From: Candidatus Methanomethylophilaceae archaeon
GTDB taxonomy: Archaea > Thermoplasmatota > Thermoplasmata > Methanomassiliicoccales > Methanomethylophilaceae
NCBI GenBank assembly: GCA_050950505.1
Contig: JBMNHS010000001.1
Location: forward strand, 64,001 to 128,000
Direction: 5' to 3'
DNA length: 64,000 nucleotides
Below the pieces are notes generated by a model. The model saw only the letters and a list, made by a program, of their open reading frames with translations. It was not told where the DNA came from and did not search any database. Numbering within the stretch: the stretch's first letter is position 1; every line of letters starts with the position of its first letter. The translations under genes and the position numbers were made by a program. Below are positions 6,930 through 40,697 of the stretch, piece after piece.

Positions 6930-7484
6930 ATGTTCGGCCGTAAAATGAGCCTGTGGAAACTTAAGAGATTAGCCAAAGCGGGAGATCCCGATTCTTCTTT
7001 CGAAGTCGGATCCTGTTATCTCAACGGCATAGGCACCGAGAAAGATGTCGAAAAAGCCATTGAATTTCTCAAACTCGGCGCGGAACAGGGTTCCGCCGGT
7101 GCCGCATTGACTCTGGGGGATATGCTGGAACGGGGTTATGTCGACAAGGAAAACTACAAAATTTCCGATTACGACACCGCATTCCTTCTTTTCAAAATCG
7201 CCGCCGACGGAGGGTTGGCCGCGGGAACCCACAGAATGGGGATGATGTACAAAGACGGACGGGGAACTCCCCAATGCATCGAAACCGCCATGGCCATGAT
7301 CACCGACGCCGCCGAAAGAGGGTTGAACAAAGCCCGGATAGATCTTTATTACATATACCGGGACGGCAACTGTGTGGAAAAGAATCCGGAGAAGGCTTTG
7401 GAATACCTCAGAACCGCGGCGGAAGACGGCGACGTTTCCGCCATATCCCTTTTGGAAGAGTTTCATCCCGAAGAGAAACTTTGA
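6930..7484 (+). CDS. Sel1-repeat protein
   Basis: Sel1 repeats (G.CYLNGIGTEKD.EKA..FLKLGAEQG, MGMMYKDGRGTPQ, YRDGNCVEKNPEKA). Confidence 0.9.
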   Translation: MFGRKMSLWKLKRLAKAGDPDSSFEVGSCYLNGIGTEKDVEKAIEFLKLGAEQGSAGAALTLGDMLERGYVDKENYKISDYDTAFLLFKIAADGGLAAGTHRMGMMYKDGRGTPQCIETAMAMITDAAERGLNKARIDLYYIYRDGNCVEKNPEKALEYLRTAAEDGDVSAISLLEEFHPEEKL

Positions 7485-7489
7485 ACGGA

Positions 7490-7588
7490 AAAGAGAAAAA
7501 AGAGACAGGGAAAACTTGGATGGATAATGGGATGCGTACCCTGTCTCTATGGGAGAACAAAAAGCATGGGGATGCACATCTTGTTCCC
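7490..7588 (-). ncRNA. Candidate small RNA with two hairpins carrying CAUCCC motifs
   Basis: Minus-strand TTAATATA box at 7620-7613; stems GGGAACAA/UUGUUCUC (7588-7553) and AGAGACAGGG/CCCUGUCUCU (7548-7501); U-rich tract immediately after. Confidence 0.55.
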
Positions 7589-7658
7589 TTAATTCTATCA
7601 ACAACGCAGGAGTATATTAACGGAATCAGGGGAGGTCCCCGAATCGGCCGAAAGTGAA

Positions 7659-9344
7659 TTATTTCGATTTATGGCGGGTGCGGATCGCCATGCCACGGCC
7701 GGTCTGAACCATCTCCCTGCCGCACATTTCCGCCACTCCGACTCCGACGACTTCGCCGTTTCTCAGTATGACCGCCTCATCCCCTATGCGGATAGACGGA
7801 TCGGCGTCAACCACTCCGACGGCGAAAAGATTGCCTTTTAAATCAAAATCGGTCATGGTCACCGCAGAGACGTTCAGACCCGCAAGTATTTCCGCCCCGT
7901 CAAGAGTCAGGGAAACCATTCCCCTTTCCGGCGTCAGCATCCCGAGCTGAACTTTTTCGGATCCTTCGCGGATGATTTTCCAGTAAGGGTATCTGCCGGT
8001 GACAAAGGTGTTTTCGTCAAGAATTGCCTCCGCCGCTTCCGGACCGAACTGGAACCGGAGGACGGAACGCATGACTTCCTTGCGTTCTGTGACGTAATCC
8101 GGAAACTCCATGTCTTCGGTTACTTTTCTCAGCGTGTCATCCAGGAATTCCAAAGATTCGAAGGATGTGGGATTTCCGTCCTTCACGGTGAATTTCATTT
8201 CCGCCAGATCTTTTATCAGTTCGTAATCGGGAAAATGACATACGATTTCGTCATATCCCTGTCCGATGAGAGAGGACAGCATTCCGCGGATCATTTCCTT
8301 TTCCGCGCAGTTCCATTCGCCGGTCACCGGTATGTCATAAGAATTCGCGGGATAAAACACGTCAAGTTCCCTGGGCACCAAACCGAGAGGAGAGGTGAGT
8401 ATGACTTCATGCACCAACACGTCATGACCCGCCGTGTGTATCGCCGATGCGAAGGCCTTGTGGGATTTGGACGTGTGGTACGGTTTTCTGGCCGAACAGG
8501 GCAACAGCAGCAGCACTTTTTTGTGATCCGGTTTGGCGTACCGTTCCGCAAAGGTTCTGCGGTATCTTTCCGTGTCGGGACGTCTTAGGGATTGGACGGT
8601 GTTGCAACAGAAAGGCTTTCCGACCGTGGGGCAGGTTTCCTCCTGATATTCGTATCCGATGCTGTCCAAATGACGCAACAGCGCAACGGAATTCGGAGAC
8701 GAAACCGACCTCTGATCCACAAGCTCCCTCAGTCTTCCCGCGGCGGTGAACACAATGACTTTTTCCAGCTCCCGTTCCAATTCTTTGGAGTTGTCGCGGG
8801 AAAAGTCTTCCGCGGTGTTGATTTCCCCTTCCGGGAACATTTTGACCCCCATCAATCCCGCCGCGATGGGCAACATATCATCAAACAGATCCACACCCAT
8901 GTAGACGAGAATGGACAGCGTGGAAGGATCGGCAATGCCTGACATATACACCAAACGGTTGAATCCCGCCAGCTCCCGGATCTTCATGACTGCGTTCAGC
9001 AATTCCCGGAGATTCTTTCTGAGTTCGAAAGCGTTCGGAACGACGACCAGTCTGCATTCCTCGGGAAGCGCGTCGGTGTCCCTCACGGGCAGACGTACAA
9101 CGGAAACTTTATCGTAATTCCCCTTGATGCCCCCGCCTCTTTCGATTGATGCCGTGGTCAGCAAACCTTCGTCCAACGGGACTTCGGTGCCCATGAAATT
9201 CAAAACTCTGCCTTCCGGTTTCAATGTCAGAAACATGTCGGATTTTCTGTCCGATGTTATGATTTCGGGAGACCGTACCGTGCCTTCGTCGGTCTTGTAT
9301 TTGCAGATTCGTCCTCTGTGGGTTCTTGCGAGAATTTCCAGCAT
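7659..9344 (-). CDS. arcS: Archaeosine synthase subunit alpha (ArcS/TgtA2) with C-terminal PUA domain
   Basis: LLLPCSARKPY..SKSH, HEVILTSPLGLVPRELD..YP...YDIPVTGEW, and PUA-like FAVGVVDADPSIRIGDE...GVGVA.M. Confidence 0.9.
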   Translation of the reverse strand: MLEILARTHRGRICKYKTDEGTVRSPEIITSDRKSDMFLTLKPEGRVLNFMGTEVPLDEGLLTTASIERGGGIKGNYDKVSVVRLPVRDTDALPEECRLVVVPNAFELRKNLRELLNAVMKIRELAGFNRLVYMSGIADPSTLSILVYMGVDLFDDMLPIAAGLMGVKMFPEGEINTAEDFSRDNSKELERELEKVIVFTAAGRLRELVDQRSVSSPNSVALLRHLDSIGYEYQEETCPTVGKPFCCNTVQSLRRPDTERYRRTFAERYAKPDHKKVLLLLPCSARKPYHTSKSHKAFASAIHTAGHDVLVHEVILTSPLGLVPRELDVFYPANSYDIPVTGEWNCAEKEMIRGMLSSLIGQGYDEIVCHFPDYELIKDLAEMKFTVKDGNPTSFESLEFLDDTLRKVTEDMEFPDYVTERKEVMRSVLRFQFGPEAAEAILDENTFVTGRYPYWKIIREGSEKVQLGMLTPERGMVSLTLDGAEILAGLNVSAVTMTDFDLKGNLFAVGVVDADPSIRIGDEAVILRNGEVVGVGVAEMCGREMVQTGRGMAIRTRHKSK

Positions 9345-38587: not shown

Positions 38588-38648
38588 ATCCTTACGGGAC
38601 ATAAACACTGATAAAGATTAAAAGTGAATCAGTCATTCAAAGGTTCGG

Positions 38649-40697
38649 ATGCACGCTATTGACAAAGAATCCGGCGCGAAGTCCGGAAAAGGCGGCAAAT
38701 CTATTGCCTATGAGCTTGCGGATGCGCAACAGGAAATATCCGTCGCGGAATTCTTCGAGAAGAACAAACAGATACTTGGATTCGATTCGCGCTCCAAATC
38801 TTTGCTGATGGGTGTCAAAGAAGCCGTGGACAACGCTTTGGACGCCTGCGAAGAAGCGGAGATACTTCCCGAAATAAACGTCTCGATAGAACGTTTGGAT
38901 GAGGACGATTATCGGATAACCGTTGACGACAACGGCCCGGGCATAGTGCACAAAGCGATGCCCAACGTTTACGGAAGATTGCTTTACGGTTCAAGATTTC
39001 ACGCGTACAAACAATCCAGGGGTCAACAGGGTATCGGAATATCCGCGTCGGTGATGTACGGTTACCTTACGACGGGAAAACCCGCGCATATAATATCCAA
39101 AGTGTCCGGGGATGACGAAGTCGCCTGGGAAATGGACATCATCGTTGATACGAAAAACAACCGTCCGAAAATAACCAACGACAGGGCGTTCACCTGGGAC
39201 AGGGATCACGGCACGAGTGTGGAATTCTCAATCAAAGGAAGATACATAACCGGAAAACAGTCCATTTTCGAATATCTCAAAAACACCGCCATCGTCAACC
39301 CGCACGCATTCATTACATTCACCGATCCCGACGGAAAGAAATGGACTTTCGAAAACGCCACCGAAAGCACCCCCATAAAACCGAAAGAGATCAAACCCCA
39401 CCCCGAAGGAATGGAAATCGGGGATCTTATGAAGTTTGCCCAATCAAGCAAACAGAATAACGTTCATGCATTCCTGAGACAGGAATTCTCCAGAGTCACC
39501 AAACGCATTGCGGACGAGATTCTGGAACTTGCCGACGTGAATCCCAAAACTTCGCCCAGGAAGCTTACCCGGGAGGAATGCGCCAACATCATCAAAGCCA
39601 TCGGCAAAGTCAAAATCATGGCGCCGCAGACCGATTGTCTGTCTCCCATCGGAGACACTCTGATCAAGAAAGGTCTGATGCACGTCATGGAGGGTCTGCG
39701 ACCGGATTATTACGCAACGCCGGTCACAAGAACCCCGAAAACCGTCAACGGCAATCCCTTCGTCGTGGAAGCCGGCATAGTTTACGGCGGAGACATCCCT
39801 TCCGACGGCCAGATAACCATCCTGAGATTCGCCAACCGGGTTCCTTTGCTTTATCAGCAGGGAGCCTGCGCCATCACCAAAGCCATATCCGACATGGATT
39901 GGAGACGATACGGATTGGAACAGAGAGGCGGAAAGGGGATTCCCTTCGGACCCGCTATAATATTGGTCCATGTGGCCTCCACCAAAGTTCCCTTCACTTC
40001 CGAAGGAAAGGAAGCGATTGCGGGATATCCGGAAATTCTCAACGAGGTGACCGCGGCTCTGAGACTCTGTGCCAGAAATCTTAAAGGTCACCTGAACAAA
40101 ATCGAACGCCGTTCGAAGACAAAGGCAAAATTTGATATCGTTCAGAAAATACTTCCGGATCTTGCCAGCAAATCCGCCGAATATCTCAACCGGCCGGTTC
40201 CGAATCTGGACCGGACCATCACGAAAATCATGAACGTCGTCTGGATCGAACCTTCTGTTGAGAAACTGAACAAAACCAACCGCAGAGTCACCTACACGAT
40301 TTACAATTACACCGAAAAAGTCCGCAAATTCGGACTCCATGCCCATCTTCCGAAAGAGTCCGTCAATCTGGCGTTGTTCTCAGACCCGTATTTCAGGGAA
40401 ATGGACGACATGGGCAGGGTCTTCTGGGAAATCGATGAACTGCAACCTTCGGTTTCCATGACCGTTTCTTTCGAACTGAGCGGCGAAATGGCCGATACCT
40501 TTTCGGAAGAGGACGTTTTCATATCGGGAATCAACTCCGTCATCGTAATGGGTGCGGATCCCCTGCCCGGAGACTGGGGTCTGAAGGGAATCGAAATTAC
40601 GGAAGAAGAGGAAGAGATTCACGAAGACACCGAGGAAGAAGATGAAGAAGATGAAATTCTCGAAGATGACGAATACGACAAGGAGGCCAAAGAATGA
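38649..40697 (+). CDS. top6B: DNA topoisomerase VI subunit B
   Basis: ISVAEFFEKN, KEAVDNALDA, DDNGPGI, SRGQQGIG, RFANRVPL; acidic tail. Confidence 0.97.
   Translation: MHAIDKESGAKSGKGGKSIAYELADAQQEISVAEFFEKNKQILGFDSRSKSLLMGVKEAVDNALDACEEAEILPEINVSIERLDEDDYRITVDDNGPGIVHKAMPNVYGRLLYGSRFHAYKQSRGQQGIGISASVMYGYLTTGKPAHIISKVSGDDEVAWEMDIIVDTKNNRPKITNDRAFTWDRDHGTSVEFSIKGRYITGKQSIFEYLKNTAIVNPHAFITFTDPDGKKWTFENATESTPIKPKEIKPHPEGMEIGDLMKFAQSSKQNNVHAFLRQEFSRVTKRIADEILELADVNPKTSPRKLTREECANIIKAIGKVKIMAPQTDCLSPIGDTLIKKGLMHVMEGLRPDYYATPVTRTPKTVNGNPFVVEAGIVYGGDIPSDGQITILRFANRVPLLYQQGACAITKAISDMDWRRYGLEQRGGKGIPFGPAIILVHVASTKVPFTSEGKEAIAGYPEILNEVTAALRLCARNLKGHLNKIERRSKTKAKFDIVQKILPDLASKSAEYLNRPVPNLDRTITKIMNVVWIEPSVEKLNKTNRRVTYTIYNYTEKVRKFGLHAHLPKESVNLALFSDPYFREMDDMGRVFWEIDELQPSVSMTVSFELSGEMADTFSEEDVFISGINSVIVMGADPLPGDWGLKGIEITEEEEEIHEDTEEEDEEDEILEDDEYDKEAKE

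Follow-up and report, generated by a model that had tools for sequence, protein, structure and literature searches.

A 64,000-nt stretch of DNA from a Candidatus Methanomethylophilaceae archaeon (hereafter the window; coordinates are positions in it unless a contig is named) carries a 174-nt intergenic region between the convergent arcS gene and a Sel1-repeat open reading frame (ORF). On the minus strand of this region lies a predicted small RNA (sRNA) made up of two hairpins and a U-rich end, preceded by a putative promoter of its own (Table 1). An earlier note on this DNA had pointed to a TTAATATA box, two hairpins, a G-U pair, a U-tract and repeated CAUCC motifs, and all of these are present on the minus strand. 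We found that the sRNA has conserved relatives in one archaeal family, shares a promoter element with recombination and repair genes, and exposes a loop complementary to the ribosome-binding site (RBS) and start region of an mRNA for an FtsZ-like protein encoded elsewhere, with the two sides of this pairing varying together across species.

Table 1. Features of the sRNA locus and its neighbors, and further sites of the promoter element in the same genome
Feature	Position	Strand	Basis or remark
Predicted sRNA (about 92 nt), two hairpins and U-tract	7497..7588	minus	fold z, covariance models R1/R2, 49-sequence alignment
Hairpin 1, GGGAACAA ... UUGUUCUC, one G-U pair	7553..7588	minus	sequence and fold
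Loop-1 motif GUGCAUCCCC	7568..7577	minus	core GCAUC(C/A)CC near-invariant between genera
CCAU linker	between hairpin 1 and hairpin 2	minus	sequence
Hairpin 2, 10-bp stem AGAGACAGGG/CCCUGUCUCU, 28-nt loop	7501..7548	minus	covariation
Loop 2 UACGCAUCCCAUUAUCCAUCCAAGUUUU, bears (C/U)AUCC repeats	7511..7538	minus	CCAUCC conserved in 49 homologues
U-rich tract UUUUUCUCUUUUCC, presumed archaeal termination signal	7487..7500	minus	sequence
TATA box TTAATATA, 25 nt before G7588 (first base of hairpin 1)	7613..7620	minus	sequence
Upstream promoter element	7629..7655	minus	ACTTTCGG 7655-7648; degenerate box GATTCGG 7645-7639; ACCTCCCC 7636-7629
Other promoter-element sites, window's genome (G000)	C1:629416-629460, C2:76256-76298, C1:60662-60704		
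arcS (archaeosine synthase-like), same-strand upstream neighbor, outside the RNA	7659..9344	minus	Pfam DUF5591, PUA, TGT_C2
Sel1-repeat ORF, convergent neighbor	6930..7484	plus	Pfam

The minus strand of the locus folds with a free energy of -47.5 kcal/mol (z = -4.1), which none of 200 shuffled sequences equaled, while the plus-strand fold (z = -0.96) was equaled by 35 of 200. In the window's sRNA, hairpin 2 runs directly into UUUUUC, and a T-run is found 3′ of hairpin 2 in most homologues. The 92-nt RNA contains CAUCC three times and GCAUCCC twice; three or more copies of CAUCC appeared in only 7 of 2000 dinucleotide shuffles. The 49 homologues hold 2–7 copies each of the shorter AUCC motif; their sum of 194 compares with 65.7 ± 6.8 for shuffled sequences (200 shuffles, at most 89). 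The enrichment of CAUCC and AUCC is far above chance.

No known RNA family accounts for the locus in the searches that we made. The comparison with Rfam that the earlier note had proposed was run: at the gathering threshold Rfam 15 recognized only 5S rRNA and tRNAs in the whole window, region 7300–7800 returned at E ≤ 10 the IMES-5 family alone (18.6 bits vs. a gathering score of 96.1 bits), and seven diverse homologous loci gave no match at E ≤ 1. Guide RNAs are marked by C (RUGAUGA) and D (CUGA) boxes at their ends or by an ACA box that follows a pocket hairpin on its 3′ side; no C/D or H/ACA boxes were seen on reading the transcript, nor did any snoRNA family of Rfam match. A full-text literature search in a limited collection returned no paper on this RNA or on its promoter element.

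BLAST searches with the spacer retrieved related spacers within the same genus, ten of which were used to build a covariance model (R1). This model matched 50 of 151 genomes of Candidatus Methanomethylophilaceae, mostly with one copy per genome. With a second model (R2) the RNA was found in 37 of the 63 genomes sampled from the family and in none of 87 genomes from six other families of the order; each group was only sampled, and a good number of the genomes are not complete. The window's sRNA scores 81.5 bits with R1 and 71.9 bits with R2, and the closest arcS loci come from records titled Methanomassiliicoccales or Candidatus Methanomethylophilaceae. The gene arcS lies directly upstream of the RNA in 43 of 49 loci, at a distance of 69–181 nt in 42 of them and 732 nt in one, and the same convergent membrane-protein gene is found downstream in 25 of 48. 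A functional link between the sRNA and arcS was considered and dropped, the neighborhood being syntenic in general. Six of the 49 copies do not stand beside arcS, yet promoter and RNA are kept.

Comparison of the homologues in the relatives, another check that the earlier note had named, revealed strong covariation of the stems together with conservation of the loop motifs. As MAFFT alignments (A1–A3) misplace the stem arms, the pair counts were taken from the model-fitted alignments (A4, A5). Pairing holds in 93.1% of the cells of the 49-sequence alignment, vs. 40–53% when the partners are slid; 221 cells are compensatory, with both sides changed, vs. at most 41 with slid partners, and all 15 pairs vary on both sides. 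Changes on both sides affect each of the five pairs of the outer stem of hairpin 1, where 85–96% of cells pair, as well as each of the ten pairs of hairpin 2 (96.2% of cells). Since about 47 of 713 cells are G-U pairs, the minus-strand reading fits. The most conserved parts of the RNA are the unpaired ones, namely GCAUC(C/A)CC in hairpin 1 and CCAUCC with further (C/U)AUCC copies in loop 2. These comparisons indicate that 7497–7588 on the minus strand is a real, conserved structured RNA family confined to one family of the Methanomassiliicoccales.

Divergent two-hairpin sRNAs, missed by the covariance models, were also seen behind the same promoter in three genera (L100, L134, L143, L141, L155). 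In these hairpin 1 is changed, and a long hairpin 2 still shows CAUCCC, AAUCC or UAUCC in its loop.

The promoter region is conserved along with the RNA. All 49 loci share one arrangement: one to three ACTTTCGG boxes about 10 bp apart, ACCTCCCC, about 10 bp, a TATA box conserved as TT(A/C)ATATAC or TTTAAATAC, about 25 nt, and the RNA. When the window's genome was searched with a profile of this promoter, the best match was the sRNA itself (E 4e-11), followed by radA (E 6e-7), an Hjc-family gene (E 0.022) and a DEAD/ResIII helicase of the Hef type (E 0.14), the identities of these genes being assigned by Pfam. One further match within a coding region was judged to be due to chance. A sequence-only model of the promoter (R3) was run on 41 good genomes of the family and found 1–17 matches in each of 40. 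We fetched 60 of these matches from 20 genomes, leaving out known sRNA promoters; for the downstream genes, representatives were checked by Pfam and the others read against them. The genes most often found were radA (17 matches) and hjc (11), while a Hef-type helicase, a Mre11-like phosphoesterase, the exonuclease VII large subunit (ExoVII-L, xseA), a DEAD_2 (XPD-type) helicase and an Ssb-like OB protein followed one match each. The rest comprised TnpB (3), Bro-N-type (3), small membrane (6) and unknown (3) proteins, a YhcG nuclease (1), DUF3795 (1), three canonical copies of the sRNA, five divergent RNAs of two hairpins whose large loop bears AUCC(C) motifs, and two unclear cases. Thus, the sRNA promoter shares its cis element with recombination and repair genes. 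Because the element is common to radA, hjc, the Hef-type helicase and the sRNA, we infer that the sRNA is switched on together with these genes, and the gene content of the regulon points to DNA damage or replication stress as the signal to which it would respond.

Several observations concern other members of the set marked by this element (loci L100–L171). In other families weaker matches of the promoter precede genes for a RadA-paralogue-like ATPase and for TnpB; one match there (L016) fell inside a coding region and was discarded. TnpB (IS605 OrfB) genes stand behind the element at L113, L114 and L152 (G046) and, in other families, at L164, L165, L169 and L171; mobile elements may be tapping the repair regulon. 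Membrane proteins of about 45–110 amino acids (aa) with no Pfam match are found behind the regulon promoter (L102, L116, L120, L126, L128, L137) in exactly three genera (g4, g6, g9), those with the divergent sRNA. A pairing of the TisB/IstR kind between small membrane protein and local divergent sRNA was unsupported, as only 5–7 nt of complementarity were seen by eye. A recurrent ATAGCCAGAC(A) element lies upstream of the sRNA promoter (L037, L042, L043, L050, L071–L082), often after another ACTTTCGG box, and was also seen at L150 and, in the window's genome, at C1:14412 and C1:1172188.

In five genomes of the genus, 31 occurrences of GGGGATGCAC, the complement of loop 1, were counted, vs. four of the reversed control. 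When the occurrences were clustered by their flanks, one group proved to be present in all five genomes, directly upstream of a gene for a 232-aa protein that consists of a Tubulin/FtsZ GTPase domain only (Pfam 9.5e-32) and scores 163 bits on the ftsZ equivalog model, under the cut-off of 295 bits. Of 61 genomes of the family, 58 carry this FtsZ-like gene, which is preceded by a gene for a 164-aa protein with a marginal match to the ribbon-helix-helix (RHH) family RHH_8 (25.4 bits, equal to the cut-off; E 1.6e-5). Both the leader of the FtsZ-like gene and the promoters of the repair genes lie outside the window.

An alignment of 18 leaders from several genera revealed three invariant boxes. 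The first, GGAUGG(G)A, comes just after the upstream stop codon; the second, GAUGGGA, sits between stems with compensating changes (read by eye); the third, GGG(G/U)GAUGCAC, ends 0–6 nt before the AUG and is complementary to loop 1. GGATGG reaches 6.8 per kb in 42 leaders vs. 0.21 per kb in the genome, about 30 times more. The CAUCC repeats of loop 2 are complementary to the GGAUGGGA boxes of the same leader, and in 34 of 35 sRNA–leader pairs the 3′ half of the sRNA, which holds loop 2, matches the upstream leader by a complementary run of 7 nt or more, typically GGAUGGGAU. A conserved AAAC-N2-3-TTTAA element is also seen 10–30 nt upstream of the loop-1 site in the FtsZ-like leaders (alignment A7) and may serve as internal promoter or have a structural role.

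The 35 pairs were formed within genomes, each combining a genome's own sRNA with its own FtsZ-like leader, and complementarity was taken as the longest exact Watson–Crick match of a 15-nt segment of loop 1 to the 100 nt spanning the start codon. Runs of at least 8 nt were found in 31 of the 35 pairs, of at least 9 nt in 29 and of at least 10 nt in 26, with the reservation that related genomes are not independent and such counts overstate the number of evolutionary events. For most pairs, the observed run was reached 0–2 times in 200 dinucleotide shuffles of the target region; the 5′ regions of radA, used as a control in 14 pairs, gave runs of 3–6 nt only.

The variants of loop 1 are matched by variants of the leader. 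Loop-1 AUCCCC goes with leader GGGGAU in 26 pairs, AUCACC (AUCACCC) with GGUGAU (GGGUGAU) in five pairs, all from one genus, and GUGCACCCCU / GCACCCCU with AGGGGUGCA / AGGGGUGC in one genome (G045). The flanks are tracked as well: CCCCC is faced by GGGGG, CCCCA by UGGGG and, in G003, CCCCU by AGGGG. No discordant pair of sRNA and leader types was observed, and three more members of the genus, read by eye, agree with the matching. When types were swapped, the mean run dropped to 7.1–7.2 nt, vs. 10.1–11.6 nt for cognate combinations. An exposed loop of the sRNA is therefore complementary to the RBS and start region of the FtsZ-like mRNA, and this seed co-varies with its target across species. 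The earlier note had proposed that CAUCC(C) is the complement of a G-preceded AUG region; this holds for one mRNA, where it is supported by the co-variation of RNA and target in the relatives.

The genome of the window, which is 99.6% complete in two contigs, differs from its relatives at this point. It contains no match to the Tubulin/FtsZ family (PF00091), vs. two such genes in each of eight sampled genus mates that are at least 90% complete. At the syntenic site, which lies beyond the window on the minus strand of contig C1 (about 1071426–1071640), the FtsZ-like gene is deleted, and the RHH gene is followed by a remnant of the leader: a hairpin whose loop shows GGAUGGGA, followed by UUUAUGGGAUGCAC, a 19-codon ORF and a T-rich end. 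The UUUAUGGGAUGCAC of the remnant is complementary over 9 nt to loop 1 and to GCAUCCCAU of loop 2. In the closest relative (G007, 76% complete) no Tubulin/FtsZ-family match was found either. The organism may thus represent an FtsZ-less lineage of methanogens.

Taken together, we consider it fairly probable that the locus encodes a trans-acting sRNA of about 92 nt that is expressed from a repair-regulon promoter and blocks translation of the FtsZ-like mRNA. Its own TATA promoter would drive the RNA, and the ACTTTCGG repeats and ACCTCCCC that it has in common with radA, hjc and the Hef-type helicase gene would have it co-activated with recombination and repair genes, most likely on DNA damage or replication stress. 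Loop 1, GUGCAUCCCC, would then pair with the purine-rich site ending 0–6 nt before the start codon of the FtsZ-like mRNA, while the (C/U)AUCC repeats of loop 2 would bind one or two GGAUGGGA boxes that lie farther 5′ in the leader; one such box sits in a hairpin loop, where a loop–loop contact could form. With the RBS occupied, FtsZ-like translation would be blocked; the geometry matches RBS occlusion, in that the loop-1 site takes in the purine-rich stretch and borders the start codon. Such a block would couple cell division, in which the target presumably acts, or envelope remodeling to DNA repair, pointing to a link between repair and cell division in archaea that works through RNA. More tentatively, with slightly less than an even chance in our estimate, the whole may work as a DNA-damage checkpoint in the FtsZ-bearing members of this family, in which a transcription factor that binds the ACTTTCGG repeats activates radA, hjc, hef and the sRNA, and the sRNA stops translation of the FtsZ-family protein by pairing with its leader at two sites, a loop–loop contact and the RBS.

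Known sRNAs offer several parallels. In Methanosarcina mazei, sRNA154 and sRNA41 form stable hairpins whose conserved single-stranded loops pair with ribosome-binding regions; they differ from the present RNA in sequence, regulon and taxon. In Escherichia coli the short sRNA DicF base-pairs with the ftsZ mRNA and blocks division. DicF is a prophage sRNA that inhibits ftsZ translation (PMC5069750, in the part of that source used here); it is prophage-encoded, bacterial and not part of a repair regulon, and has neither sequence nor structure in common with the RNA described here. The closest described case is DinR of Klebsiella pneumoniae, an SOS/LexA-controlled sRNA that represses ftsZ by occupying its RBS, as stated in the cited portion of PMC10907235. 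Both RNAs combine a tie to a repair regulon with complementarity to the RBS of an FtsZ-family mRNA, which in our case is seen from the promoter element and the co-variation. DinR comes from a bacterium, depends on Hfq and is processed out of the dinI 3′ untranslated region (UTR), whereas the RNA described here is archaeal, is preceded by a promoter of its own and is unrelated in sequence. It also differs from DinR in using two loops against two or three leader boxes and in having as target a truncated, GTPase-only relative of FtsZ, and it is known from sequence alone. By analogy, it would be an archaeal counterpart of DinR or DicF.

The target and the promoter element likewise have counterparts in other archaea. 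In the cdrS-ftsZ2 arrangement, a ribbon-helix-helix gene directly precedes an FtsZ-family gene in a polycistronic unit widely conserved in archaea, as set out in the cited part of PMC7439475. The RHH_8-type gene before the FtsZ-like gene resembles it by arrangement, its RHH match being marginal; for haloarchaeal cdrS-ftsZ2, that part of the source describes no sRNA. The UV-inducible promoters of Sulfolobus contain a non-palindromic A(N)TTTC motif upstream of the B recognition element and TATA box, at -39 to -44 (cited part of PMC5817253). The present element contains ACTTTC; unlike the motif described there, it spans about -67 to -41, with one to three ACTTTCGG repeats and a ACCTCCCC box, and belongs to another phylum and another gene set, so the similarity may be coincidental.

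If such a checkpoint exists, it would be the first case in Archaea of a link from DNA repair to division and of a damage-regulon sRNA, and it would have arisen in convergence with bacterial SulA/DinR. Next to nothing is known of how FtsZ-dividing archaea couple division to genome integrity, and targets backed by co-variation have been described for few archaeal sRNAs. The system offers a defined RNA of about 90 nt, an mRNA site with natural compensatory variants and a promoter element that marks a compact recombination/repair regulon in host-associated methanogens and gives a handle on the transcription factor behind it.

A number of results weigh against the proposed repression of the FtsZ-like mRNA. 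Four of the 35 pairs (G092, G075, G016, G046) show only 6–7 nt of loop-1 complementarity, and the five AUCACC/GGUGAU genomes, all of one genus, may reflect a single evolutionary event. In two genera in which no sRNA was detected, GGGGAUGC is present at the FtsZ-like start (G049; weakly G041), and the loop-1 site may be partly conserved for its own sake, e.g., as a Shine–Dalgarno sequence. The alignments used for the pair counts were fitted to the model structure and are hence biased toward it, although the margin is large. The promoter element precedes also TnpB, Bro-N and small membrane-protein genes. The earlier note had further supposed a general preference of the RNA for G-preceded starts, which was not borne out by a crude genome-wide duplex test: duplexes of -16 kcal/mol or lower were formed by 24.8% of 1203 start sets vs. 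32.0% of 917 internal AUG controls (crude ORF call, both loops). The one RNA-labeled sequencing run found (0.30 of words) gave two contigs, both in the interior of arcS (8029–8970) and none on 7490–7620, a result that decides neither way. Finally, the sRNA is intact in the window's genome despite the loss of the Tubulin/FtsZ family. Because this genome keeps the sRNA without any gene of that family, the FtsZ-like gene cannot be the sRNA's sole reason to exist, and here the RNA is either orphaned or acting on other targets.

This retention also fits a protein sponge, in which the (C/U)AUCC copies of the large loop and the CAUCCCC of hairpin 1 would titrate an RNA-binding protein in the manner of CsrB and the complementarity to the leader would be only indirect. 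A short motif repeated many times in unpaired loops (194 AUCC, as given above) suits such a role, as does the copy number, which varies between genera as it does in sponge RNAs, and the divergent forms of three genera lose the hairpin-1 sequence and keep AUCC(C) in the loop of hairpin 2. We still regard a sponge as quite unlikely: a protein that binds CAUCC leaves unexplained why the leader carries the complement, GGAUG, instead of the same motif, and why it matches the loop-1 variants base for base, and no candidate protein was found. The same sRNA–leader pairing might otherwise have a different outcome, with translation activated or the transcript of the RHH and FtsZ-like genes stabilized or cleaved. 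Here the pairing is supported and its effect may be of either sign; the leader has hairpins of its own beside the three boxes, and the sRNA could remodel an inhibitory fold. A site that ends 0–6 nt before the AUG and covers the presumed Shine–Dalgarno sequence has, however, the classical geometry of repression, as in the portion of the DinR report cited (PMC10907235), which makes another outcome rather unlikely.

That the locus yields no independent RNA, and is a 3′ UTR or terminator of arcS or a bidirectional terminator of the two convergent genes, appears highly improbable. The element does follow arcS on the same strand at the short distances given above, its U-tract end faces the convergent gene, and the independent transcript is a predicted one. 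A terminator would, on the other hand, have no need of loops that stay invariant while the stems change, nor of the TATA box and radA/hjc-type element that stand between the arcS stop codon and the hairpins in 49 of 49 loci; the six copies located elsewhere retain both promoter and RNA, and the arcS neighborhood is one of general synteny. The conserved promoter, covarying stems and invariant loops thus side with the independent sRNA of the earlier note rather than with a mere terminator.

Other partners of the sRNA were considered as well. The start of top6B (window 38647–38654), named in the earlier note, has 8 nt of complementarity in the window and in two of four relatives, and 6 nt in the other two. 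Its GGAUGC(AC) context, complementary to loop 1, is conserved in the genus. The top6B mRNA may be leaderless, a TATA-like box, GATAAAGATTAAAA, being placed about 24 nt before its start. GGGAUGCAC / GGGAUGCACACGA sites occur, likewise about 24 nt behind TATA-like boxes, at C1:562788 and C2:121512, both beyond the window; a 257-aa membrane ORF (no Pfam match) begins at one of them and a 26-codon ORF at the other. Together with the top6B start, these sites are possible candidates for further targets in the FtsZ-less genome.

No tRNA with at least 9 complementary bases was found, the best being 8 nt in a tRNA-Leu, and the 3′ end of 16S rRNA (...CAGAUGGAUCACCUCCU), which offers about five single-stranded complementary bases, was dropped. 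A 12-nt match in an fpoA-like coding region (C1:582087) recurs in one other genome only and was judged a coincidence of the coding sequence. In the window's genome no 28-nt span contains four or more GGAT; 35 contain three, of which the one intergenic case led nowhere. In four of five genomes of the genus (L175, L177, L178, L184), a TATA-like box is followed about 22 nt later by aaatGGGGAUGCAC, which starts an ORF of 6–19 codons or a small RNA.

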